The notes under the pieces: model-generated | What the model was told of the DNA's origin: nothing | The model's database searches: none | Seen by the model: only the letters and a program-made list of their open reading frames with translations | DNA from: a virus | Direction: 5' to 3' (one strand) | DNA length: 64,000 nt | Virus record (IMG/VR): IMGVR_UViG_3300046714_000236 | Coordinates: 1-64,000 of that record | In this document: positions 50,180-64,000 of the stretch, piece after piece | Layout of the letters: each line of letters starts with the position of its first letter | How positions within the stretch are numbered: the stretch's first letter is position 1 | Position numbers and translations under genes: made by a program

Positions 50180-51583
50180 TCAGGAGCCGAGCGCGAACTC
50201 CAACATGAGCGACCGCTTCACGATCTGCGGGCCGCCCGAGCTGATGTCGGTCGGGATCGGGAAGCCACCCGTGTAGCTCCACGTGCACGACACGATGTCT
50301 TGCGTCCGGTTGACCGGGCTCCGAAGGATCAGCGAGATGCGATCCGTCTTCACTTCGATCCCTTGGTTCGTGATGTTGAAGCCGCCGATCTTGCCGGTGA
50401 CTCCCGCTTCACTCACGTAGCGCTTCTCGTCGAGCCAGCGCTCGTAGATCGCACCGCGCCCCGTGATGACGACGCGACCGACGCGAACGCCGGTGTAGTT
50501 CACCACCTCGGCGTTGATGCCCTTCGCGAACTTCGCGCTGCCCGCCGTCGTGATGAGCGCGCCCGAGTTCGAGTCGTCCGGCGTCTCGTTGTTGAGGAAG
50601 AACGCGATCCCCGCGCCCGTCCCGATGAACGCCGACTGATACTGAATCGAGTCGGGACGCCCTTGGTTCAGGCGCTGCATCACCTGATCGGTGAAGATCT
50701 GGCCGTTGCCCTCGGGGCTGATGTGCGCGTGAAAAAACCCGTCTTCGTGTGGGAACACGTTGTTTTGACGGAGCTTGTTCGTCGCGTTGATGAAGTCCTG
50801 GTACTGCAGGATGTCGTTCGCCTGCAGTGCATCGACTGACGTGCCGCCACCGGCGCGCATGATGATCGGGCGCGTGCTCGCGAGGACCGAGCTACGGATC
50901 GCCACGCCTGCGCCGACAGTGCTGTCGAGCGCGAGCGTACCGGGACCGAGCGGGACCGCGGGATCGTACGGCGTCGCGCCGATCACGTTCAGGCTGATCG
51001 GCGTGGTGCCGCTCATGAGCGTGATGGGGAGCGGTGCCGCCGTCGAGACGGGCGTCGGGCGCACGGTCGTACCGCGCGTGATGACGCTCGTGAACCCGTT
51101 GAGGCTCGCGACCTGAAGGAACGTGTCACCCGTGAGCGCGGCGACGATGAGCGCCGTCGAGCCCTGAAGGTACGCGGTGCAGAGCGCGTTCCTCGGGATG
51201 CGGTTCAGCGACTGCCCCGCCTGAAGGCCGAGCTGCTGAATGCTCCGGAGGAAGATGTCGCTGTTCGCGACCGCGTTCGTCGGCATGTCGACGTCGATCG
51301 TGCCGATGTAGCGATCGAGGCGAGCAGTCCATTGCTCCCACGTGAGCGCTTGCGGCTCGGGGTCGACACCGGGCACCGCGGGATCCGTGATCGGATCGAG
51401 CAGGCCGGCGCGAGTCATGAGGATTTCCTGGCCGGTGTTGCCCTGCCACTCTTCCTCTTGCGCTTCGCCCCTGAAGAGCATCGCGGGGAAGAGCCCATCG
51501 TGGAACGCGCGCTCCAGTAGGCCAGTCTGAACGAGGTTCAGGATCGTCGGAGGTACTCCGAGAACGATGCCGTTGGTCTCCAT
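50180..51583 (-). CDS. Major capsid protein
   Basis: 467 aa after the scaffold; QLGLQAGQSLN spine helix and L..NNV P-domain pattern. Confidence 0.85.
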   Translation of the reverse strand: METNGIVLGVPPTILNLVQTGLLERAFHDGLFPAMLFRGEAQEEEWQGNTGQEILMTRAGLLDPITDPAVPGVDPEPQALTWEQWTARLDRYIGTIDVDMPTNAVANSDIFLRSIQQLGLQAGQSLNRIPRNALCTAYLQGSTALIVAALTGDTFLQVASLNGFTSVITRGTTVRPTPVSTAAPLPITLMSGTTPISLNVIGATPYDPAVPLGPGTLALDSTVGAGVAIRSSVLASTRPIIMRAGGGTSVDALQANDILQYQDFINATNKLRQNNVFPHEDGFFHAHISPEGNGQIFTDQVMQRLNQGRPDSIQYQSAFIGTGAGIAFFLNNETPDDSNSGALITTAGSAKFAKGINAEVVNYTGVRVGRVVITGRGAIYERWLDEKRYVSEAGVTGKIGGFNITNQGIEVKTDRISLILRSPVNRTQDIVSCTWSYTGGFPIPTDISSGGPQIVKRSLMLEFALGS

Positions 51584-51801: not shown

Positions 51802-52701
51802 CTACCAGCTTTTTTTCATGCCCTGGCGGTTCATGTACTCCTTCAGCTGCTTGTCGTTCATCGAGTTCGGGAGCCCGGGACGCGGCGTCAAACCCGCGAG
51901 CGGATCGGGCGCCGCGGGAGCGGCCGCAACCTTCGGCGGGACCGGCTGCTTGCCGTTCGTCGCTGGCGTTCGCACGGGAGGCTTCGGCGCCGCCGCGGGA
52001 GCTGCAGCCGCGGGGGGAGCGGTGAGCTCAGCGGGAGGCGCGCCCGTCGGTGCCTCGACCAGTTCCTGATTCTCCTTCGCGTACTTCGCGAGCCACGCGT
52101 TGATCGCAGCGCGTCCGAACTTCCCTTGCTCCGTCTTCGTGAGCTTCGCGTAGTGCTGCGCCATCTGATCGTTCACGAACGGCACGAACTTCTCTTTGAA
52201 CTTGTGCGATGCGACGAGCGCGCGCACCTCGGCGTTCTGCTTCTGCGCAAGCGTCTGCGTCTTCTGATCTTCGAGCTGTGCGGTGAGCTCTGCGATCTTC
52301 GTCGTCGCCTTCTGCAGATCGGCCTTCAGCTGATCGATCTCCGTCATCTCGGAGCGCTTGCGCGCTTCTGATTCCTCACGAAGGCGCGTGAGCTCTTCCG
52401 CGTCCGCTTGCCGCTTGACCCTGAGCTTCTCGACTTCCGCCGGATCGTCCGTGCCGAACTCGGCCTTCAGGAGTCGCTTGCGCTCTGCCTCGCGTTCCTT
52501 CCGCTTCACATCCGAGATCGCTTCTTCCGGCACGGGGCTACCGCCGCGACCGAGCACGGGCGCAACGGGTTCGACGGGAGCGGGCTCGATGGGTGGAGGC
52601 GCGGGAGGCGCGACCGCTACGGGCGCCGCAGGGGGCACGACGATCGCGGGAGGCGGCATCGGGGGAGCTGGGTTGACGGGTGCGACGGCAGGTTCTGTCA
52701 T
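51802..52701 (-). CDS. Capsid scaffold protein
   Basis: Pro-rich ends, central coiled coil, directly before the capsid gene. Confidence 0.8.
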   Translation of the reverse strand: MTEPAVAPVNPAPPMPPPAIVVPPAAPVAVAPPAPPPIEPAPVEPVAPVLGRGGSPVPEEAISDVKRKEREAERKRLLKAEFGTDDPAEVEKLRVKRQADAEELTRLREESEARKRSEMTEIDQLKADLQKATTKIAELTAQLEDQKTQTLAQKQNAEVRALVASHKFKEKFVPFVNDQMAQHYAKLTKTEQGKFGRAAINAWLAKYAKENQELVEAPTGAPPAELTAPPAAAAPAAAPKPPVRTPATNGKQPVPPKVAAAPAAPDPLAGLTPRPGLPNSMNDKQLKEYMNRQGMKKSW

Positions 52702-52783: not shown

Positions 52784-53464
52784 TTAGAGCAGCGTGCGAT
52801 CTGCGGAAAGGATCGTGTTCAGATCCTTGTCCGTCGCGATGAGGAGCGTGAGCGTCGCGCGCGTCACGGCATCGGCCACCGCGAAGAGCACCTTGTCGTG
52901 CGCCACTTTGAGAAGCGCCTTCCCCGTTGCCGGCTTGCTGTCCGACGGCAGGAGGATGTGCATCTGCCCCGTGAGCGTTCCGACGAGTGACTCGGCTGCG
53001 AGCAGGTACACGACGCCGCGCGCCGTGAGTGCGGCCGGAATGTCGAACGTGTCCGCCGTGCCCGAGACGTTGAGCGTGAGCTCCACGACATCGCCGCGCG
53101 CGGGCAGGAACGTCACATCCACGTCCGTGGTGTCCGCCGTGGGCGCGAACATGAGATCGCCGTTCGGGCTGATCCCGATGTGACCCGCCGCCGGTGCGGT
53201 CTCGGTGTAGCCGTCGATCGTGAACTCGCCCTTCGTGGTTCCCGCGCGGCTCGTCGCGCGGCTGATCACCGCGGCCTTGCCGGTGTTCGGGAGCGAGATC
53301 ATCTCACTCGACGCGATGCCAGGCGCGGCCGATGCGACCGGGTTCTGCTTGCGCAGCACCTGCACCATCTGCCCGCGAAGCAGATCACCGAGCCCGAGCT
53401 TGCGGAAAAGGTCCGCGATCGATCCGAGGTTTGCGGCGTTCGCCGCGTCTTGCTGTGTTCCCAT
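52784..53464 (-). CDS. Putative head decoration/structural protein
   Basis: Ala/Thr-rich with two internally similar halves; head module. Confidence 0.65.
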   Translation of the reverse strand: MGTQQDAANAANLGSIADLFRKLGLGDLLRGQMVQVLRKQNPVASAAPGIASSEMISLPNTGKAAVISRATSRAGTTKGEFTIDGYTETAPAAGHIGISPNGDLMFAPTADTTDVDVTFLPARGDVVELTLNVSGTADTFDIPAALTARGVVYLLAAESLVGTLTGQMHILLPSDSKPATGKALLKVAHDKVLFAVADAVTRATLTLLIATDKDLNTILSADRTLL

Positions 53465-53562: not shown

Positions 53563-53982
53563 TCAGATGAGCCCGCACACGAAGTATTCGAGCACGCCCG
53601 ATCCCTTGGCCGCCAGTGCCTTCAGGAACTTCCCCGACTGGAACGGGATGATAAGGGGGCCGCCGTTGATCGGGATCTCCGCTTCGACGTCTCCGCCGTT
53701 GCCGTCGTCCGTCGTGACACGCACGATCACGTCGGACCCTGATTTGAAGTACAGGAACGATCCGTGTGTGACCGTGTCATCGGCACCCACACCCTGCAGC
53801 TCAGCGAACGCGCTCGGGGAGTTCAGCGTTCGTTGAAGGATCCCCGTTGCGACGCTGTAACCGATGCCCTCCGAGCCTTGCAGGAAGGTGAGGGGGATCG
53901 TCGCGCGGATGCCAGGGAAGCCCGTGTTGACGCCCTGAGGGGGCCCCGCGGTGAGGTTCCCCCCGATCGTGAGCTGCCCCAT
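53563..53982 (-). CDS. Putative structural protein
   Basis: Beta-rich; head module. Confidence 0.65.
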   Translation of the reverse strand: MGQLTIGGNLTAGPPQGVNTGFPGIRATIPLTFLQGSEGIGYSVATGILQRTLNSPSAFAELQGVGADDTVTHGSFLYFKSGSDVIVRVTTDDGNGGDVEAEIPINGGPLIIPFQSGKFLKALAAKGSGVLEYFVCGLI

Positions 53983-53988
53983 TGGAGA

Positions 53989-54255
53989 TCAGCCCCCGCC
54001 GAGCTTGAACGGCTTCTGCCCATTGCTGAGCGAGCCGACACCGACGAAGCCCGACTTCTGCTCACCCGCGCCCGGGGTGACTTCCTCGACGACGGGCCGC
54101 ATGGCGGGAGAGCTGTTCGGCATCTCCTGCTTGGCCGTCTGCGGGTTCTGCTGCCGATTGAAGTCCGGCGCGGGGGACCGCGAGACTTCGCGCTTCCCTT
54201 CCGGGTTCGTCACCGCGTTGAAGCCCTTGCCCGAACCGTCGCTGTTGATGTCCAT
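53989..54255 (-). CDS. Small disordered protein
   Basis: AGGAG RBS; ends KPFKLGGG. Confidence 0.65.
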   Translation of the reverse strand: MDINSDGSGKGFNAVTNPEGKREVSRSPAPDFNRQQNPQTAKQEMPNSSPAMRPVVEEVTPGAGEQKSGFVGVGSLSNGQKPFKLGGG

Positions 54256-54268
54256 GGATCGACTCCTA

Positions 54269-54493
54269 TCAGAACTTGAACGGCTTGCCGCCGCTTTCGA
54301 TTGCAGGGCCCGCGGGGGGCCACGGCTTTTGCTGCTGCGCGATCTGCGCGCTGCACTGCCCGATCGTCGGCACCCACTTCGGGCGCGCTAGATCGGGGCG
54401 CCGCTCGTCGAGCGGGTTCGGAGGCGTTGCACCGCTCCGCGCTTCGCGGTTCGGGTCTGCGGGGGAGCTCCCGATGGTGAACGGCTTCGGCAT
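54269..54493 (-). CDS. Small Pro-rich protein
   Basis: TGaTACCTT 7 nt before ATG; ends KPFKF. Confidence 0.65.
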   Translation of the reverse strand: MPKPFTIGSSPADPNREARSGATPPNPLDERRPDLARPKWVPTIGQCSAQIAQQQKPWPPAGPAIESGGKPFKF

Positions 54494-54532
54494 GCCCCTG
54501 AAGGTATCAGGGCGCTTTCAGAGCGGCAAGCC

Positions 54533-54552
54533 GACCGACATCGATGTCGGTC
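54533..54552. repeat. 20-bp palindrome copy 11
   Basis: Exact; abuts the stop at 54553. Confidence 0.97.
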
Positions 54553-54900
54553 CTACTTCGGCCAGGCCGGGTGCAGCTTCGGCTCCTGCAGCTCGTACAG
54601 GGTCGACCAGACGTCGGAGTACAGATGCGCGCGCGGGCGGTCCTTCTCGGCGATCCGGCTCTTGAAGTTGTCGTAGTCGATCGCTCCTGTGATGCGAAGC
54701 ATCGCAGCGGCCACGACCGACTTCGAGCAAACCACCCGAAACCGATAGTCGGCATCGAGCGTTTCGCGGATCCGAATGCGCGAGCGCGCGTGTTCGAGAA
54801 ACTGCTTCAAGTCTTCGCGGCGCCGTGCGCGCACGCAGAGATCCACCGAGCCGCGCTTCTGCACGATGCTCACGAAACCGCCGTCGAAAAGGATCCACAT
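54553..54900 (-). CDS. Conserved-looking phage hypothetical protein
   Basis: MWI...GFVSIV...VRAR...DYRFR...IDYDNFK...VW pattern. Confidence 0.8.
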   Translation of the reverse strand: MWILFDGGFVSIVQKRGSVDLCVRARRREDLKQFLEHARSRIRIRETLDADYRFRVVCSKSVVAAAMLRITGAIDYDNFKSRIAEKDRPRAHLYSDVWSTLYELQEPKLHPAWPK

Positions 54901-55118
54901 CAGCGATCGATCTCGGTCCCGAGGCCCGCGCCGTCGTCGTTCATCTGCCCCCACCATGCCTTGTGCCCCGTGTTCAGGATGCACCGGTACTTGTCCCGCT
55001 CGGGAGCCGGGAGCTGTTCCATGTGCGCGCGGATCGCCGCGATGCCGTGGATCTCCTGCCCACTCGGGCCGATCACCGTCACGATGTTTTCGGGCACGTG
55101 AAACTCCAGATCGGGCAT
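54900..55118 (-). CDS. Small hypothetical protein
   Basis: GGCATCCT 6 nt before ATG; directly after the MuF-toxin gene. Confidence 0.7.
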   Translation of the reverse strand: MPDLEFHVPENIVTVIGPSGQEIHGIAAIRAHMEQLPAPERDKYRCILNTGHKAWWGQMNDDGAGLGTEIDR

Positions 55119-55137: not shown

Positions 55138-58131
55138 TCACCAATTGCCCAGCTTCTTCACGTACCCCCACGTCGCGGGCGGCCCGTACTTCTTCGCGTC
55201 TTCGTTCCACGTCGCGATCTGCGCCTTGGCTTCGTCGAGCGAGTCGGTGTGCATCCAGGTTCCCACCTGCTCGACGCCGTTCTTCGTGTAGAAGTAGCGC
55301 GCCGTCTTCTTCGGCTTCTTCGGCTTCGTCTCTGCAGACGTAGCCTCGACAGACTTCGGACGCGGGCCACGTCCGAAGTAGAGCGCCGATTCACCCGTCC
55401 CGTGTCCGCTCTCGACTTCTTCGAGCGTCACGTGCAGCGTTTTGGTTCGCCCCTGCAGCCGGTGCACTTCGACGATCCGAAACTTCCGCCCTTCATCGAG
55501 CAGAACTTCATCCTCGCCATAGTTGCTCGACTTCTGATTCACCGCGAGCCGTCCCTCGTGTTGCCCGGGTCTCATCTTGTAATGCCAGAGGATCGCATTC
55601 TGCCCCTTCGATCCGTTCTCGTGCGCGAAGCTCAGCGCGGAGCTCGGGCGCCACGACGTGCTCAACACCGACGGCAACGTGTGATGAGTGCTGTTCAACA
55701 CCTCGTGAATCTGCGCGTCGGTGATCCCGTGATCACCGCGATACAGATCCGAGAACTTCGCCTCCAATTGCAGATCGTGTGCTGGTGCTAGCGGGTGCGC
55801 TTTCTCCACCGCACTCGCAGCGTCTTTGAAGCCCGCGCGCAGCGATTCGTATTCTTCCTTCCGCCGCTTGTAGAGCCCCTTGTCGTACGACGATCCATAA
55901 CTGCTCTCGTTGAACTCCTTCTCCGTCTTCCGCTTCGTCGAGAGCAGCGAGTGATAGCCGCTGCCCGTGTAGTCCTTCATGACCAACATCTGATCCGGGT
56001 GCGCTTGCTCCCACGCCGCGAGCTTCCGCATCTCCATGAAGTTGAAGTCGGACCGCGACGTGAACCCCGCGGGCTCGTTGCGATCACGATCGAGCGGCTT
56101 CGTTTCGAGCTCCGAAAACTTTCGCTCGTTCGCCGCGCCCTTCGCCGCTTTCTTCACCCGCGCCTTCACGAGCGTCTTCAGCTTCTCACTCAAAAGATCC
56201 GTCTTCTGATTGAGCATCTTCACCGTCTGCGCGTGATCGGCAGGTGAGAGCCCGGGCGCGTTGTGCTTCACGTACGCGTCCCACCCACCGCCATCGAGAT
56301 CGCGGAGTTTCTTGATCGCTTTGATCTGCGCCGCGAGCCCCGTGATGTCTTCCGCTTTCGAGACGCCCGCTTCCTTCGCGACTCGCGCGTAATCCTTGTT
56401 CAGATCCGGATTGAAGAACCCTTCCCACTCGCTGATCCCCTCCATCTGCCCGAGCGTCTTTCGTCCCGCCTTCGCGCGGAAAAGGAACACGCCGCCCTTG
56501 TCGATGCGTTCCGCGCTGTGCCCCGCGCTTCCCTTCGGGATCAGAATGTTGTCGAGCCCCGAGCCCACCGCATCCCAGTTCGCGGTCAGCACGTCGGCCG
56601 CAAACCCTTTCATCACCGTCTTCGCAGCCGTCGGCGTGAGCCCCGCCGTCTTCAGCGGTTCGCCCTCGATGATCTTGCTCGCGTACGCCGTGACCTTGTC
56701 GCCCGTCTTCGGGTGCGTCGCCGTGAACAGTTCGCTCTTCACCGTGCCGAGCCCGAGATCGTCGTAGATCACATTGGCGAGATGTTCGAGCTGCGCCTGC
56801 GCCGGGTCATCGTAGAACTTCACGTAGCGATCCACGCCGTCGGCGCCCTTGTAGAGCCCGCCTTCGTTCGAGCCCGCTTGTCCGCCGATCTTCTCGGCCA
56901 TGATCACGTCCGCGCGCGGCACTTCCGGCGCGACAATCTGCGGAGGTGGCGTCGGTTCGAGCACGATCGGGGAAGCGTGCACGTGCTCAGGAGGCGGGAG
57001 CGGCCACGGTTGCCCGACCGGAGGCGGGAGCGCCGCGAGATCGGGAGGTGGCGCGGGAGGTTGTGCCCCGAGCGTGTCACCGATCAAGATCGTCGTCGGC
57101 TGCTTCACGATCTTCAGCGGCTGCACCTTGCCGAACTGATCGAGCGGTACCGTCGTCATGAGCGGTCGCGCCGGGGGCGATCCCTTCCGCCCTTCGAGCC
57201 GCCAACGAACGAGCACCTCGGCATCGGACCGCGGCGTGAGTGACTCGGGGATCGGCCAGCTGATCCGATGAGGAACGACGACGGCACGATCGTTCGGGCG
57301 ATCGGGAGGGTGCATCACCGAGCCGAACCACGTCGCGAACATTTGCTCGGGGCGTCGGATCTCGCCGTGCACCGCGATCGAGTCCGCGCCCGTCCTGCTG
57401 TCGAACACGCAGGACAAGATCTTCACCATGTCCCCGAGCTGCGCGTTCGCTTGGCTGATCGCGATCTCCGAACTCTTCCCGTGCGCCGCCATCACTTCGG
57501 TTCGGAGGATCCGTTCAGCCCAGTGCGCGGGAGCTCCCTGAAGAAACGGGGAAGCTTTGATCAACCGATCACGGGTTTCGTCCCATGGGGTTTGCGCGAG
57601 GAACCGCTGTTGAAGCGTGCCCTCGAAGTGTTCGACAACCTGCGCGCCGTAGCGCTGCAGGATCCCCGGCCCCTTCTTCTCATCGTATTGCAGCCGGTGC
57701 AGGAGACTCGACTCCGCGCCGTGCGTCGCGCGGTCGTAGAGCGCGGCTTCGTCGAGCTGCAGCGGTTGGTGGATCCCCTTGAACTTCGCTTGCGTGGCTC
57801 GCAGGTATTCGATCGTGCTCCCCGCGGCGAGTCCGGCCGTCTGCTTGCCGGTTTCGAGCGCCGTGCTTGTGATGCCCGCCTTCACGTCGACGAGCACCGC
57901 GCGCACTTGAGTGAGCACGCTCTGCAACTTCGCAGCGGTGAAACTCTCGGAGCCCGGGCCCTTCAAGCCCTGCGCGTGCGTGAGACGTTCGACGAGATCT
58001 TTCTCGGCGCGCTTCAGGATCGGGAGCATCCGATCGCGCGTGAGCTTCTCCGCGAGCTCGATCGCCTTCGCGCGATTCGAGGCGAGGATCGCCGCGGGAC
58101 CCTGGCCCGTGATGAGTGCAGGGACCGCCAC
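55138..58131 (-). CDS. MuF/SPP1 gp7-like head protein fused to kinase-like and ADP-ribosyltransferase domains
   Basis: ERILRTE..A, DSRT, HPPDRPNDR (MuF); GSNEGG, YVK, NWD, DN, RIDKGG (kinase-like); LYRG, STS, EDE (R-S-E ART). Confidence 0.85.
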   Translation of the reverse strand: MAVPALITGQGPAAILASNRAKAIELAEKLTRDRMLPILKRAEKDLVERLTHAQGLKGPGSESFTAAKLQSVLTQVRAVLVDVKAGITSTALETGKQTAGLAAGSTIEYLRATQAKFKGIHQPLQLDEAALYDRATHGAESSLLHRLQYDEKKGPGILQRYGAQVVEHFEGTLQQRFLAQTPWDETRDRLIKASPFLQGAPAHWAERILRTEVMAAHGKSSEIAISQANAQLGDMVKILSCVFDSRTGADSIAVHGEIRRPEQMFATWFGSVMHPPDRPNDRAVVVPHRISWPIPESLTPRSDAEVLVRWRLEGRKGSPPARPLMTTVPLDQFGKVQPLKIVKQPTTILIGDTLGAQPPAPPPDLAALPPPVGQPWPLPPPEHVHASPIVLEPTPPPQIVAPEVPRADVIMAEKIGGQAGSNEGGLYKGADGVDRYVKFYDDPAQAQLEHLANVIYDDLGLGTVKSELFTATHPKTGDKVTAYASKIIEGEPLKTAGLTPTAAKTVMKGFAADVLTANWDAVGSGLDNILIPKGSAGHSAERIDKGGVFLFRAKAGRKTLGQMEGISEWEGFFNPDLNKDYARVAKEAGVSKAEDITGLAAQIKAIKKLRDLDGGGWDAYVKHNAPGLSPADHAQTVKMLNQKTDLLSEKLKTLVKARVKKAAKGAANERKFSELETKPLDRDRNEPAGFTSRSDFNFMEMRKLAAWEQAHPDQMLVMKDYTGSGYHSLLSTKRKTEKEFNESSYGSSYDKGLYKRRKEEYESLRAGFKDAASAVEKAHPLAPAHDLQLEAKFSDLYRGDHGITDAQIHEVLNSTHHTLPSVLSTSWRPSSALSFAHENGSKGQNAILWHYKMRPGQHEGRLAVNQKSSNYGEDEVLLDEGRKFRIVEVHRLQGRTKTLHVTLEEVESGHGTGESALYFGRGPRPKSVEATSAETKPKKPKKTARYFYTKNGVEQVGTWMHTDSLDEAKAQIATWNEDAKKYGPPATWGYVKKLGNW

Positions 58132-58143
58132 GATCGATCTCTA

Positions 58144-60351
58144 TCAGATGCCGGGAAGCTTCGGCTGCACGGGGAGTGCGGGAACGGGAGGCGCGACCGG
58201 CTTCGGCGCGAGTGCGCCCCCGAGCCCTTCGCCTTCCGCTTGGCCCTTCGCTTCCTTCTTCGCCGCGTACTCCGCAACGGTGAGATCACCGTCCGGATCG
58301 GGTCGCTTGTCCTTCGTGAGAAGCGGCCCGAGTTTGATGCTCCGCCGCGCCTCGTTCACCGTGACGATCTTCGCGACGTCGGTCGGCGTGACGAGCCCAT
58401 CCTCTGCGTCTGCAAGCCCGACCGGGAGGATCCCATCCGGACCGACATCGATGTCGGTCGGCGCGGGAGCGTTCGGATCGACGGGCCCCGCGGGAGGCGT
58501 CGCACCTGGCGGAAGCTCGTTCGGGTTCGGCACCGCGCCGCCGAACGGCGGCGTGAGACCCATCTCCAGATCGCGAGCACGAGCGGCTTCGTCCTGCACG
58601 CGTTGCCACTCCTTCTCGGGATCGCGGTTCATCATGTTCGCGATGCTCTCGACCATGCTCTGCTGACTCGCGACCGGCTTCGCTCCGATCGCCGTCGACG
58701 CACCGGCCATCGCTTGCTGGCGTTCCGCGATCGTGGGCGGGAAGTATTCGCCCCATTCGAGCGAAAGCGAACCACTGCCAGGCTCGCGCTCGATCGTGCG
58801 CGTCTCGTCGGTCGCGTTGCCGTCCTTGTCGAGAACCGGTTCCTTCCGCGGTTCGAGATCGAGGAAGTATTCGACATCGTTCGCGGGCTCTTCGGGCTCG
58901 GTCGGGATCGCCGCCGTGTCGACGTCGTACGTCGGGAGCGGGTCCTCGTTCAGCGCGTAGTCTTCTTCGATCGTGACCGGCGTGAGCGGCGCGCCCTGCG
59001 CCTTGCCGAGCAGACGGCGCGCGCTCCGGATCTGATCGTTCAGAAGCCGGAGGATCCCCATGTCCCCGTAGTGTTCGCGGTACACGTCCGCGACGTTGAT
59101 CATCGGCGCGTAGATCATCTTGATCGCGACGCTGCTCGTCCCTGCCGCCGCGATCTCGTCGGGGTCGGGGATCACGCACTGCACGTCTTCGAGGATGGAG
59201 TTCTTCTGCGCCTTGATCAGTTCGAGCCCCGCCGTGATCGAGCTGCCCGAGAGTTCGAGATACTTCGCATCGCGCGGCGAATTGCTCTCGGTAACACCGG
59301 TCGCGAGCGCGTGATCGCTTCCCTTCATGAGCACCATTGCGCCCATTTCGGCGGGGGTCACACCCGGGAGCACGAGCGTCGGATCGAGGTTCTTCGCACC
59401 ACCACGCGCGAGCACCGAGTTCAGAACGTCGAGCGTGTCGAGCGCCTCGAACTGCCCTTCGTAGTCCGGCTCTCCGTCGACGCTCGCCTGCTTCGCTTCG
59501 CTGTCGTTCGTGATCCAAACGAAGTGACACCGAGCATCGTTGTGCGAGAAGCACATCGGTTCATCGCGTTCCCACGGCACGCGCTCGCCATCGTTCCGAA
59601 CCGGGGTCGGTTTGAAACAGACATCCTCGTTCAGCGTCCAGTCACGCCGCACCCAGTGCTGGATCTCGACGAGCTCGCCCTTGTCGTTCTTCCCCGTCAT
59701 CGGGAGCTGATAGAGCTCCATCACGTGCGACGGGATCTTCTCGTCGAAGTTCGCCCACTGCAGCGTGTAGATCTGCGAACCGTCGTGCACGCGGTTCACC
59801 GGTTTCCCTTCGTAGAAGCACCACGAAATCCCGACCGTGCCGCACGAGCCGCCGACGTTCCGCGCCTGCACCATGCGAACGCGGAGCTGCCCGATCTTCG
59901 CGAGCTCTTCGGCGTAGTCCTGCGTCGCGGGATCGTCGGATCGAAGTTGCGGGAATCGGTTCTGCCCGAAGAGCAGCGACGTGAAGCGCTTCGTGATCGT
60001 GCGCGCGAGTCGCTTCGGTGCGTGCGGTCTCCGTTGTTCGAGCGGCACGTAGAAGCTCGGCTGCTGTCCGATCAGCGGCTGGCTCCCCCACAGTTCCTCG
60101 TGCTGCCGAAAGCGGCCCGAGAAATCGAACATCTTGTCGTCGTGCTGCGTGCACGTGTACCACTTCGACGCGAACCGGAGTTTCTTCGAGCGGTTCGAGT
60201 AGTAGTACGACTCCGGGTTGACGTAGTCATCCGACGCGGGAACTGCGCTCGGTTGCGCGTGCACGTCCTCGGGTCCTGTCGTCGTCGCGCCGGGCCCGAA
60301 CGCAGAGTACGTCTGCACGGGCGCCGCGTTGCCTTGACCGAAGATCCCCAT
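58144..60351 (-). CDS. Portal protein
   Basis: Between terminase and MuF; SSVAIK..YAPM, W..YFP and TVNEARR motifs. Confidence 0.85.
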   Translation of the reverse strand: MGIFGQGNAAPVQTYSAFGPGATTTGPEDVHAQPSAVPASDDYVNPESYYYSNRSKKLRFASKWYTCTQHDDKMFDFSGRFRQHEELWGSQPLIGQQPSFYVPLEQRRPHAPKRLARTITKRFTSLLFGQNRFPQLRSDDPATQDYAEELAKIGQLRVRMVQARNVGGSCGTVGISWCFYEGKPVNRVHDGSQIYTLQWANFDEKIPSHVMELYQLPMTGKNDKGELVEIQHWVRRDWTLNEDVCFKPTPVRNDGERVPWERDEPMCFSHNDARCHFVWITNDSEAKQASVDGEPDYEGQFEALDTLDVLNSVLARGGAKNLDPTLVLPGVTPAEMGAMVLMKGSDHALATGVTESNSPRDAKYLELSGSSITAGLELIKAQKNSILEDVQCVIPDPDEIAAAGTSSVAIKMIYAPMINVADVYREHYGDMGILRLLNDQIRSARRLLGKAQGAPLTPVTIEEDYALNEDPLPTYDVDTAAIPTEPEEPANDVEYFLDLEPRKEPVLDKDGNATDETRTIEREPGSGSLSLEWGEYFPPTIAERQQAMAGASTAIGAKPVASQQSMVESIANMMNRDPEKEWQRVQDEAARARDLEMGLTPPFGGAVPNPNELPPGATPPAGPVDPNAPAPTDIDVGPDGILPVGLADAEDGLVTPTDVAKIVTVNEARRSIKLGPLLTKDKRPDPDGDLTVAEYAAKKEAKGQAEGEGLGGALAPKPVAPPVPALPVQPKLPGI
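58440..58459. repeat. 20-bp palindrome copy 12 (inside portal CDS)
   Basis: Exact; encodes (P)TDIDVG in the Pro-rich tail. Confidence 0.97.
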
Positions 60352-62012: not shown

Positions 62013-62354
62013 CTAGCTCTCGTCGTATCGAACCTCGACGCGCCCGACGGCTCTGCCGTTCACGAAGATGGTAGCACCTCGGAACTGTGCGGCGTCAACG
62101 AGCGCGGGCCGTTCCTCTCGGAAGCGATGCGTCACGATGTACTCCGTTGCCGTTTCGAATGCCGCCGTGAGCGCCTGAAAGGCTTCCGCCGTCCCGCCGT
62201 TGTCCGGGTGCGCGTCCTTCGCCCGCAAGCGGTAGGAGCGTCGGACGAGCGCCTCGACGTCTGCCCGCGTGTCGACTTGCTCCTGCCCCGTGATGCCGAG
62301 CGCCTGCAGTGCACGAACGAACTCGGCCTTCGTCAGAAGGCGTTTACCTCGCAT
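62013..62354 (-). CDS. J-domain (DnaJ-like) protein
   Basis: LGI...RRSYRLRAKDAHPDNGGTAEAFQ.L..AF with the HPD motif. Confidence 0.85.
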   Translation of the reverse strand: MRGKRLLTKAEFVRALQALGITGQEQVDTRADVEALVRRSYRLRAKDAHPDNGGTAEAFQALTAAFETATEYIVTHRFREERPALVDAAQFRGATIFVNGRAVGRVEVRYDES

Positions 62355-64000
62355 GCAGCGAGGAAATACCAGTCGCCCCCTCAGGAGGCAATTGGGGCCC
62401 GCGCGTGATCTTCGAGAGCCGCGCGCCCTCGCGAGCGATCCACATCGCCATCATGCGATCGCCCGTATGCTTGCCCCGCTGATAGAAAAGCAGCTCGTTG
62501 ATCCAGTCCTGCACCACCGGATCGACGAGTCCGTCGACGTTCGGGATGAGCCACGCGCCGTTTTCGATCTCGATGAAGATCGATTCGAGCCCGGTCTGAT
62601 GATCCCACTTTCGCTTTCCAGTCGTGACAAGCGAGCGCACCGGGGTGTCGATCTTCTGTTCGAGGAGCCAGTCCTTCATCCATCCCTGAGCGCTGTTCCC
62701 CTCGACGTACGCGATCGAGTTGTACCGGGCGATGGTGTTCGCGATCCGCGTCTTCAGCTCCACGCCCGACCACTTGCCCGCTTGGATGTCGAGGATCTGC
62801 CGGAACCCGTTCGGCAGGAACGCGACGGTGAAAAGCGCCGAGAGATCGCTCTTCTTCTTTTTCGAGAACGCGGGATCGATCCCCGTCACGACCGGGAGCC
62901 CGCCCGAGTACGCGGCTTCGAGCTGCGTGACGCCGTTCTCCTTCGCGTGCTTCTTACACTTCTCGATCCATTCGATCTTTACGTGGCTCGTCGCGTCGTC
63001 ACGCACCTTCAGCGAATAGCTCTGTTGATGCGCGAGCTCCGTCATCACGCGCCGCTGTTCCTCGATCTTCGAGCGCGGCCACACCTCGGGCCAGAGCGGG
63101 ATCTCGTCGTTCCGGTCGCGCCATTCCGTGACCGAGGGATCAAGCGCGATGCCGTTCGAGCGCGCGTACTCAGGAGTGTCGTGCGCGACGAGCCGGAACC
63201 GGTCGAGCTCCCCCGGGCGCGGCTCAGTGTCCGACGGACGGATCAGATCGCTGTCGAAAGCGTCGGCGTTCTCGAACCAAATGTTTCCGTAGGCGTCCAT
63301 GTTCAGGACCGCCCACCCAAGCCGCGCGAGTGCGTACGTGAGATCTCCCTTGTCGTCACTCTGCCCGCTTGGATCGCCCGGGTGCCAAGGCGCGTTAGTC
63401 ACCGTGATCCGCAAGTCGCGCGCACCGCGGCGCGTGAGCACGTTGTTCTGAACCCAATTGTTCAGCTTGCGCCGCTGCTCGACGGTCGCCGTGTTCTCGC
63501 TGTTCAAAATGTCGTCGATGAGGATCCACGTCGCGCGACCACCGAGCACGCGCCCCGTCTCGTAGCTGAGCGCCGCCATCGTCGGATCGCGCACGCTCAT
63601 CCCGCGTTCGACAGTGATCGATGTCTGCGACCATGGATCGCCTTGCTGCGATGATGGCCGGAGCTCGGGGAAGACGAGCCGCACCTCGGGGCTCTTCTCG
63701 ATGTAGGAACGAACGCCGTTGACGACTTTCTTGCTCTGATCTTCCGCGGCCGAGATCACCATGATCCGTTCGGTCGGGTCGCTGCCGATCACATGCAGAA
63801 GCAGCGACATCATCCCGAACGTCTTGCTCGAACCGGTGAACGCCCGGACGACGCAATACTGGTAAAAAAGCACGAACTCGTTTTGGAGTTGTTGGTGCGC
63901 GGCGATCCGAAGCGCGGCGTTTCCCGCTTCCTCCGAGCGCATCGCGAAATCAAAAAACCGAGACTCGTTCGCGCGCGCCGCCGCCGCTCGTCGTAGTGTC
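62344..64000 (-). CDS. terL: Terminase large subunit (5' end beyond window)
   Basis: Frame open to the edge; variant Walker A (TGSSKT), Walker B ILIDD, nuclease motifs GIDPA, D.SA and GDRMMA. Confidence 0.9.
   Translation of the reverse strand, partial: TLRRAAAARANESRFFDFAMRSEEAGNAALRIAAHQQLQNEFVLFYQYCVVRAFTGSSKTFGMMSLLLHVIGSDPTERIMVISAAEDQSKKVVNGVRSYIEKSPEVRLVFPELRPSSQQGDPWSQTSITVERGMSVRDPTMAALSYETGRVLGGRATWILIDDILNSENTATVEQRRKLNNWVQNNVLTRRGARDLRITVTNAPWHPGDPSGQSDDKGDLTYALARLGWAVLNMDAYGNIWFENADAFDSDLIRPSDTEPRPGELDRFRLVAHDTPEYARSNGIALDPSVTEWRDRNDEIPLWPEVWPRSKIEEQRRVMTELAHQQSYSLKVRDDATSHVKIEWIEKCKKHAKENGVTQLEAAYSGGLPVVTGIDPAFSKKKKSDLSALFTVAFLPNGFRQILDIQAGKWSGVELKTRIANTIARYNSIAYVEGNSAQGWMKDWLLEQKIDTPVRSLVTTGKRKWDHQTGLESIFIEIENGAWLIPNVDGLVDPVVQDWINELLFYQRGKHTGDRMMAMWIAREGARLSKITRGPQLPPEGATGISSLHAR

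Follow-up and report, generated by a model that had tools for sequence, protein, structure and literature searches.

The stretch of DNA analyzed here (the window) comprises positions 1 to 64,000 of IMG/VR virus record IMGVR_UViG_3300046714_000236, a virus record that is complete at 94,229 bp and has direct terminal repeats. A gene on its minus strand at 55138..58131, present in single copy in the record, encodes a 997-residue polyvalent head protein, that is, one with several effector domains in a single polypeptide. A divergent MuF-like domain at the N-terminus is followed by an atypical protein-kinase-like domain and an R-S-ExE ADP-ribosyltransferase domain. The catalytic residues of both predicted enzymes are intact, their pairing is conserved among relatives, and the gene stands in the head-assembly module. 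We consider it fairly probable that the whole protein serves as a MuF anchor bearing two enzymes that would be injected into the host cell and modify it. The features of the gene are as follows, with the evidence for each in parentheses.

55138..58131, minus strand: whole gene, predicted MuF/kinase-like/ADP-ribosyltransferase polyvalent head protein (open reading frame, translation, homologues)
57112..58131, minus strand: putative MuF-like (SPP1 gp7/Mu F type) head-incorporation domain, residues 1-340 (homologues, gene position)
56896..57111, minus strand: proline-rich linker, residues 341-412, 29% Pro (composition)
56152..56926, minus strand: predicted atypical protein-kinase-like domain, residues ~402-660 (AlphaFold2 model, Foldseek, VIA-align, conservation)
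55414..56106, minus strand: predicted R-S-ExE ADP-ribosyltransferase with an N-terminal helical part, residues ~676-906 (model, Foldseek, VIA-align, conservation)
55141..55413, minus strand: C-terminal tail, residues 907-997 (91 residues; model, homologue comparison)

According to the list of open reading frames (ORFs) and the translation, the gene is one long ORF with a GTG start at 58131 and a stop codon at 55138-55140. The window has a guanine-cytosine (GC) content of 65%, and many shadow ORFs overlap the 997-residue frame. A search over 5.8 billion proteins returned 95 homologues, several of which are collinear over 88-100% of the length at 35-62% identity, and the frame can thus be taken as a real gene and not as a chance product of a GC-rich genome. 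The closest nonidentical homologue is 62% identical along the whole length, and ~20 more are collinear at 35-46%.

A preliminary description of this DNA, made from its letters and leaving the strand unstated, had named most of these parts. The motifs it listed (GSNEGG, YVK, NWD, DN, RID, LYRG, STS, and ExE) all lie where it had placed them. Its MuF domain is borne out by homologues and gene position, its Pro-rich linker by the composition of residues 341-412, and its small C-terminal module by the presence of such a module in the model. The distal enzyme, which it had called a VIP2-type ADP-ribosyltransferase, is predicted to adopt a VIP2/C3-type fold with the Arg, the STS, and the ExE intact. 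Of its proposal of a PI3/4-kinase/HipA/LepB-N-like domain, the likeness in fold stands, with CtkA, PI4KII, HipA, actin-fragmin kinase, and LepB-N as the nearest structures, whereas membership in these families by sequence does not. AlphaFold modeling of both enzyme domains, which it had put forward as a check, returned kinase and ADP-ribosyltransferase folds.

The kinase-like and transferase domains

The kinase-like domain carries GSNEGG at residues 420-425, YVK at 436-438, NWD at 518-520, DN at 527-528, and RID at 542-544 (RID(K)GG to 547). In an alignment of 20 domain-length kinase-like sequences (A1), the invariant columns are G-S-N-x-G-G, the Lys in R-Y-V-K-F-Y, a Glu 11 residues on, N-W-D, D-N, and R-I-D-N-G-G. 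With this alignment as input, AlphaFold2 produced a bilobal kinase fold at a predicted local distance difference test (pLDDT) of 88.4 and a predicted template modeling score (pTM) of 0.83. In this model, strands 1 and 2 flank the Gly-rich loop, strand 3 bears Lys438, and the helix that follows bears Glu449. Asp520, Asp527, and Asn528 occupy a loop of the second lobe before a strand, which is followed by Asp544 of RID(K)GG ("IDxG"). As modeled, the putative ATP-site residues follow the canonical protein-kinase order along both the sequence and the structural elements.

Foldseek returned 442 PDB matches to the model at E ≤ 1e-3; the 43 that were listed are kinases without exception. The best of these is actin-fragmin kinase (E 1.7e-6), with VPS34/PI3K, CtkA, PI4KIIa, and Rio at weaker E-values. 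VIA-align ranked H. pylori CtkA highest (Z 17.2-17.4; root mean square deviation, rmsd, 3.0 over 214-223 residues), followed by PI4K type II (Z 14.9-15.1), CotH (14.5-14.8), MavQ (12.8), HipA (12.3-12.5), actin-fragmin kinase (12.2-12.3), and the N-terminal domain of LepB (11.4). The domain shares its order of ATP-site motifs with the class formed by CtkA, HipA, PI4K type II, actin-fragmin kinase, and CotH. It differs from that class in an identity of only 10-16%, in that no Pfam model detects it, and in its fusion to a transferase on a phage head protein. We take CtkA, CotH, HipA, Fam20, and actin-fragmin kinase to be protein kinases, the PDB titles saying "kinase" only. PI4K type II presumably shares the "N-x-D...D-N" and "I-D-N-G" patterns as well, a resemblance that serves as a lead only.

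No model in Pfam, NCBIfam, or PHROGs matches the kinase-like domain in direct scans of the protein and its parts, and with PF00454, PF09192, and PF18640 a threshold as lax as E ≤ 10 turned up nothing in this genome. Pfam scans of 20 family members at E ≤ 1, and of several distant relatives, yielded no kinase family that would serve as a sequence bridge, and phmmer of the 997-residue protein against PDB sequences gave one spurious match only (E 0.68). As judged by these scans, the domain falls outside the PI3_PI4_kinase, Act-Frag_cataly, LepB_N, and HipA sequence families, and its kinship to these atypical kinases is one of predicted fold. The nearest named Atlas clusters, LepB_N, PI3_PI4_kinase, and HipA_2, are leads only. 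When the A1 profile was run against PDB sequences, a surface-layer beta-propeller (E 0.0022) and designed proteins came up, and no kinase; we rejected these as composition matches because they are contrary to the confident kinase fold.

Across 224 copies of the kinase domain, the putative ATP-site residues are close to invariant: Asn518 is kept in 223/223, Lys438, Glu449, Asp520, and Asn528 in 222/223 each, and Asp544 in 219/221. Each putative ATP-site residue is retained in at least 95-99% of the 224 copies, which argues for an active enzyme rather than a pseudokinase.

In the distal domain, LYRG spans residues 796-799 (with the Arg at 798), STS 824-826, and E-D-E 873-875. The only invariant columns of the query region in an alignment of 36 proteins (A2) are Arg798, Gly799, Ser824, Glu873, and Glu875; among family copies, Arg798, Glu873, and Glu875 are kept in 142/142 and Ser824 in 140/142. 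The model of the transferase region has an overall pLDDT of 83.6, exceeding 90 through the transferase domain itself. Its best Foldseek match is the Vis toxin (E 1.2e-10), and C3, Certhrax, HopU1, C2-I, and iota-like toxins follow at weaker E-values. In VIA-align, Vis (Z 16.1), Certhrax (14.4), C3 (13.6), and VIP2 (13.5) stand out, with scores dropping clearly after the transferase entries. Residues ~676-906 are thus modeled as an ADP-ribosyltransferase fold in which the Arg, Ser-Thr-Ser, and Glu-x-Glu motifs occur in order. Members of the R-S-ExE clade are typically arginine-specific mono-ADP-ribosyltransferases.

Fold and catalytic motifs are those of the Vis, Certhrax, C3, VIP2, and iota/C2-I toxins (PF03496/PF01129), from which the present domain differs in having no secretion or cell-binding component and in being embedded in a phage structural protein. 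ADPrib_exo_Tox matches the 997-residue protein below threshold (E 0.006-0.075; 12.8-16.4 bits against a cutoff of 23.4 bits), and at E ≤ 1e-3, 16 of the 36 homologues match PF03496 and 13 match PF01129. The tail beyond the transferase consists of a Lys-rich stretch (K-P-K-K-P-K-K) and then a small predicted beta-beta-alpha-beta module (pLDDT 42-76). Among homologues, it is common only to the 62%-identical relative (P0003). It has no Atlas match, structural matches of Z ≤ 4.1 at best, and a marginal PHROG match only (E 0.01). A related-locus search with the transferase and tail as the query gave no viral contig.

We collected 231 proteins and sorted their architectures with hidden Markov models built from our own alignments: 106 have the order MuF-kinase-transferase, 42 have kinase-transferase, and 58 have the kinase alone. 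Of 110 representatives retrieved with the kinase domain as the only query, 92 extend 180 residues or more beyond it, and a transferase is present in 76 of these 92 (83%). The gap between kinase and transferase has a median of 68 residues (10th-90th percentile 42-132; 149 pairs), and in the 150 proteins that end with the transferase, a median of 8 residues separates its end from the C-terminus. Where the R-S-ExE transferase is missing, the partners are a directly adjacent NUDIX domain, an inorganic pyrophosphatase domain, or a Zeta toxin; DRAT-type transferases also occur as partners of the kinase domain. Neighboring genes are not shared around the kinase-transferase unit in the fetched loci. 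Given this narrow and conserved pairing, the unit is a conserved cassette moving between phages that are otherwise unrelated.

A distant relative in the cultured Yersinia phage fHe-Yen8-01 carries the cassette at the end of a 2146-residue protein. GenBank names this protein "ADP-ribosyltransferase toxin" with the note "phage particle associated protein", which is the only direct hint of a virion location, and our literature search found no paper on its particle association. Other cultured carriers of the cassette are Aeromonas phage ST4 and Pseudomonas phages Jeremy, Dolphis, and Touem01.

The MuF domain and the head module

Phage_Mu_F matches the 997-residue protein at residues 200-285 with 16.9-18.9 bits (E 0.0027-0.011), the curated cutoff being 29.6 bits, and phrog_3517 ("head morphogenesis") matches it marginally (E 0.0057). 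Among the 36 aligned homologues, 24 match PF04233 at E ≤ 1e-3, the best at E 5.9e-14. Ten scanned relatives, namely the nine closest by N-domain (46-62% identical there) and P0019 (48%), match PF04233 at the equivalent position with 18.7-29 bits. Because homologues match this family and the gene follows an SPP1-type portal gene, a divergent MuF/gp7-type domain is a sound reading of residues 1-340.

The close N-domain relatives bear differing, unannotated C-terminal parts. This is the cargo-swapping pattern described for MuF proteins, both in a survey of MuF polymorphic toxins (Jamet et al. 2017, PMC5576092) and in the study of polyvalent proteins by Iyer, Burroughs, Anand, de Souza, and Aravind (PMC5512222). 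Pairwise comparison of homologues showed that modules corresponding to residues ~10-340, ~407-660, and ~700-906 move independently between them, and the spacing from MuF to kinase ranges from 7 to 566 residues.

The minus-strand order in this part of the window is large terminase, portal, the 997-residue gene, six small ORFs, scaffold, and major head protein, at the following positions.

62344-63942, minus strand: large terminase (phrog_38, E 5e-48)
58144-60351, minus strand: 735-residue gene, inferred SPP1-gp6-type portal (homologues with PF05133)
54900-55118, 54518-54898, 54269-54493, 53989-54255, 53563-53982, and 52784-53464, minus strand: six small ORFs between the 997-residue gene and the scaffold gene
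51802-52701, minus strand: scaffold-like protein
50180-51583, minus strand: major head protein

The 997-residue gene begins 13 nt past the stop of the upstream portal gene, and so directly after it within the head-assembly module, as is expected of a MuF/gp7 gene. The 735-residue protein itself has no direct Pfam, PHROG, or PDB-sequence match; we take it to be the portal because PF05133, the family of the SPP1 gp6 portal, is present in several of its homologues, which are 38-44% identical to it (E about 1e-116 to 1e-136). The candidate is one of a divergent SPP1-type portal family that recurs on many contigs, roughly 80-99 kb in length.

Pfam and PHROG scans gave no family match for any of the six small downstream ORFs, and these are not conserved beside the kinase-transferase cassette in the other fetched loci. 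They may have an immunity or chaperone role; since the window neighbors are unconserved in every fetched locus, no candidate immunity gene was found. The genome has no recognizable ADP-ribosyl-hydrolase, Macro, or NUDIX gene, though it may encode an unrecognized immunity protein. The complete genome also has no Phage_integrase or Resolvase match, that is, no tyrosine or serine recombinase, and the phage is therefore probably virulent. The region shows no sigma-70-like promoter, and its sole terminator-like site is on the opposite strand. Met411, an internal start that would give the kinase-transferase part alone, has no convincing ribosome-binding site.

Proposed mechanism and alternative readings

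In the mechanism we favor, the MuF (SPP1 gp7-like) domain would probably recruit a few copies of the protein to the procapsid portal, and the proline-rich tether would join this anchor to the kinase and transferase cassette. The kinase would be a catalytically intact, atypical member of the CtkA/PI4KII/HipA structural class, and would most likely phosphorylate Ser/Thr residues of proteins at the expense of ATP. The transferase would be an arginine-type (R-S-ExE) mono-ADP-ribosyltransferase of the C3/VIP2/Vis/Alt class. The whole protein, or its effector part, would be expelled with the DNA at infection, so that host proteins would be phosphorylated and ADP-ribosylated ahead of any phage gene expression. 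One protein would then combine what T4 Alt and T7 kinase do separately. Portal binding, packaging, ejection, the enzyme activities, and their substrates are what we infer from the features above; virion delivery appears plausible, and the role would be one in host takeover or anti-defense.

Several points weigh against this mechanism. The protein's own Pfam matches for the MuF and transferase domains are below threshold and the middle domain has no such match, so that the domain calls rest on homologues and predicted folds. The kinase assignment in particular is made by fold, because no kinase sequence family matches the domain even at lax thresholds. Kinase folds support AMPylation or glutamylation too, and since lipid kinases are among the nearest structures, the substrate could belong to more than one class. 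The gene lies in a late operon, and the enzymes could act late in the producing cell as well. Lastly, the tight linkage between kinase and transferase may mean that the two are not independent effectors.

This linkage is central to a different reading, in which the kinase-like domain is not an effector of its own but works with the transferase as one unit. It could act in cis as a regulator that holds the transferase inactive in the producing cell or the capsid, select its targets, or carry out a second step on the ADP-ribosylated product. The kinase-fold protein SidJ, for instance, controls the SidE transferases. Such coupling would fit the highly conserved order and spacing, with a median gap of 68 residues and a transferase in 83% of the relatives that have room for one. 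It would also fit a genome with no immunity-type gene for an ADP-ribosyl-hydrolase, macro, or NUDIX protein, as well as the other partners of the kinase domain, which are NAD/nucleotide enzymes too (the adjacent NUDIX, DRAT, and pyrophosphatase). The kinase domain, however, also occurs alone, duplicated, or with nontransferase partners such as Zeta toxin, and its full set of ATP-site residues is conserved as in an ordinary phosphotransferase. In addition, packaged transferases of the T4 Alt type need no immunity. We regard a coupled unit, the chief alternative to the favored mechanism, as unlikely.

The kinase-like domain could alternatively act on a non-protein substrate, either a lipid or envelope precursor, modified so that DNA enters more easily, or an immune signal of nucleotide or NAD origin (counter-defense). 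The lipid kinases PI4KII, MavQ, and LepB-N are among its best structural matches (Z 11-15), LepB_N, PI3_PI4_kinase, and HipA_2 as nearest Atlas clusters point the same way as leads only, and the domain is associated with NUDIX and pyrophosphatase domains. CtkA is nevertheless the best match by ~2 Z, with CotH, HipA, Fam20, and actin-fragmin kinase strong too, and our searches found no sequence-level link to any lipid-kinase family. To our knowledge, bacteria lack phosphoinositides, which counts against a lipid substrate. A non-protein substrate is thus distinctly unlikely in our view.

The preliminary description had framed the protein as a MuF polymorphic toxin with one toxin more than usual. 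In MuF polymorphic toxins (e.g., Enterococcus EFV), as here, an N-terminal MuF domain bears a C-terminal ADP-ribosyltransferase, and delivery by the capsid has been proposed for them (PMC5576092). They have been reported from temperate phages and prophages only, where most have an immunity gene and a single known toxin domain, and the word "kinase" is absent from that paper (PMC5576092). A classical toxin of this kind, belonging to a temperate phage, serving interbacterial competition, and paired with a downstream cognate immunity protein, would account for the MuF N-domain with variable C-terminal parts among close relatives, for the small unannotated ORFs downstream, and for relatives in bacterial chromosomes, i.e., in prophages. 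The frame fits poorly, though: the complete genome has no integrase or resolvase match and no recognizable immunity-like gene, the downstream ORFs are unconserved beside the cassette in other loci, and the protein has an extra kinase-like enzyme. Neither a temperate context nor a cognate immunity gene is apparent from the sequence, and two effectors with a tail are more typical of polyvalent proteins (PMC5512222). The premise that one toxin is usual is itself weakened by these known polyvalent proteins (PMC5512222) and by the 106 MuF-kinase-transferase proteins among the 231 collected. We consider this reading highly improbable.

The remaining alternative, a morphogenetic role only or late action in the cell with degenerate or undelivered enzyme domains, would suit the late-operon position without a promoter or terminator of its own and the subthreshold Pfam scores, but it has very little probability since the catalytic residues of both domains hardly vary among hundreds of diverged copies, which argues for selection on activity.

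Relation to known effectors and spread of the family

Multi-effector polyvalent proteins of phages and conjugative elements were described in 2017; in that work, MuF and ADP-ribosyltransferase domains are network hubs, protein-kinase domains are among the effectors, and injection together with DNA is predicted (PMC5512222). The present protein resembles them in combining several effector domains, that is, at least two, in one polypeptide whose gene lies among late/virion genes. The kinase of the polyvalent proteins is of the Ser/Thr/Tyr type, with its C-terminal lobe lost and a His...Asp catalytic pair (PMC5512222). The present domain, in contrast, is modeled with a helical C-lobe kept, has NWD...DN...IDxG motifs, and is CtkA/PI4KII-like. 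A fixed kinase-transferase cassette is not mentioned in the text of PMC5512222 as consulted here.

Among individual phage enzymes, T4 Alt is a transferase that is packaged in the head, injected, and active in modifying RNA polymerase (PMC5512222, PMC9503650), transferases of the Alt/VIP2 family are often fused to MuF (PMC9503650), and T7 kinase has been cited as a precedent for phage kinases (PMC5512222). The likeness of T4 Alt and T7 kinase to the present protein is a functional analogy, covalent modification of host proteins at the start of infection, and neither combines both activities. T4 Alt has a head-targeting signal of its own and does not rely on MuF, and T7 kinase is an expressed early gene product and not a virion protein. 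A search of a cultured-phage protein collection gave nine records, none of them from T4 or T7.

With HMMER over 1.84 billion representatives, the kinase-like family numbers 2811 proteins at E ≤ 1e-3, of which 309 remain at E ≤ 1e-30. The domain lies mostly inside proteins of 500-2000 residues, some of which have two copies; P0134 (1879 residues) and P0181 (1954 residues) are examples of two copies in one polypeptide. It occurs on viral contigs; in prophage-like loci of Fimbriimonas, Janthinobacterium, Verrucomicrobiales, Planctomycetes, and many Melainabacteria/Gastranaerophilales; and in cultured phages of Yersinia, Aeromonas, Pseudomonas, Escherichia, Enterobacter, and Morganella. Fold matches in BFVD extend to Gordonia and Mycobacterium phage proteins. 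The BFVD entry A0A6J5S481 ("Phage portal protein, HK97", 1201 residues) matches the kinase model in Foldseek at E 1.2e-12 with a poor rmsd of 20; if this match holds, the domain may ride on the portal in place of MuF.

Seven loci of Melainabacteria/Gastranaerophilales (L013, L016-L019, L021, and L027) have distant copies near residues 1560-2170 of ORFs of 2160-2610 residues, the one in L013 carrying an HD domain as well. They probably represent polyvalent proteins of very large size from gut prophages. At the other extreme, five A1 members (P0099, P0100, P0103, P0104, and P0107) are stand-alone kinase-like domains of 261-279 residues, with a conserved G-G-P-G-S-G-C-[HR]-G-x-[NK]-C-G-R-P motif at the N-terminus, right ahead of the domain. 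The Cys pair in this Gly-rich motif could be part of a processing or targeting signal or form a small metal site. A stand-alone gene of 261 residues in a Janthinobacterium metagenome-assembled genome (L010:7959-8744) overlaps the end of an unannotated 470-residue ORF in ordinary chromosomal surroundings (an aldo/keto reductase, a LysR regulator, and a 2107-residue DUF4347 protein), and may be a copy that was domesticated or left behind as a remnant.

Fusions of MuF to a transferase have already been published, as have multi-effector polyvalent proteins, and the MuF-kinase-transferase architecture is common in metagenomes; a dual enzyme on MuF is therefore not new in kind. What appears to be new is a predicted CtkA/PI4KII-like kinase family for which Pfam, NCBIfam, and PHROGs have no model, as well as the near-obligate association of this family with an R-S-ExE transferase. 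Nothing relevant on such kinases in phages came out of the literature searches, which were not exhaustive.

A few enzymes, T4 Alt among them, are known to enter the host with the phage DNA and help to seize it; MuF-anchored or polyvalent effectors have been predicted to do so widely and tested in few cases. If its enzymes were inactive or unpackaged, the protein described here would be simply another divergent MuF fusion. As it stands, the gene points to a concrete and testable case of prepackaged phosphorylation and ADP-ribosylation of host targets, and it raises the question of why two enzymes are inherited as a pair. There is a small chance that the kinase-like domain and the transferase are obligate partners in a single two-enzyme machine, one that thousands of phage head and polyvalent proteins would share, working either by cis control that gives self-immunity until ejection or by ADP-ribosylation that is primed by phosphorylation or itself phosphorylated. 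Were this so, the injected pair would represent a new host-modification chemistry, performed by a hitherto undescribed kinase family.

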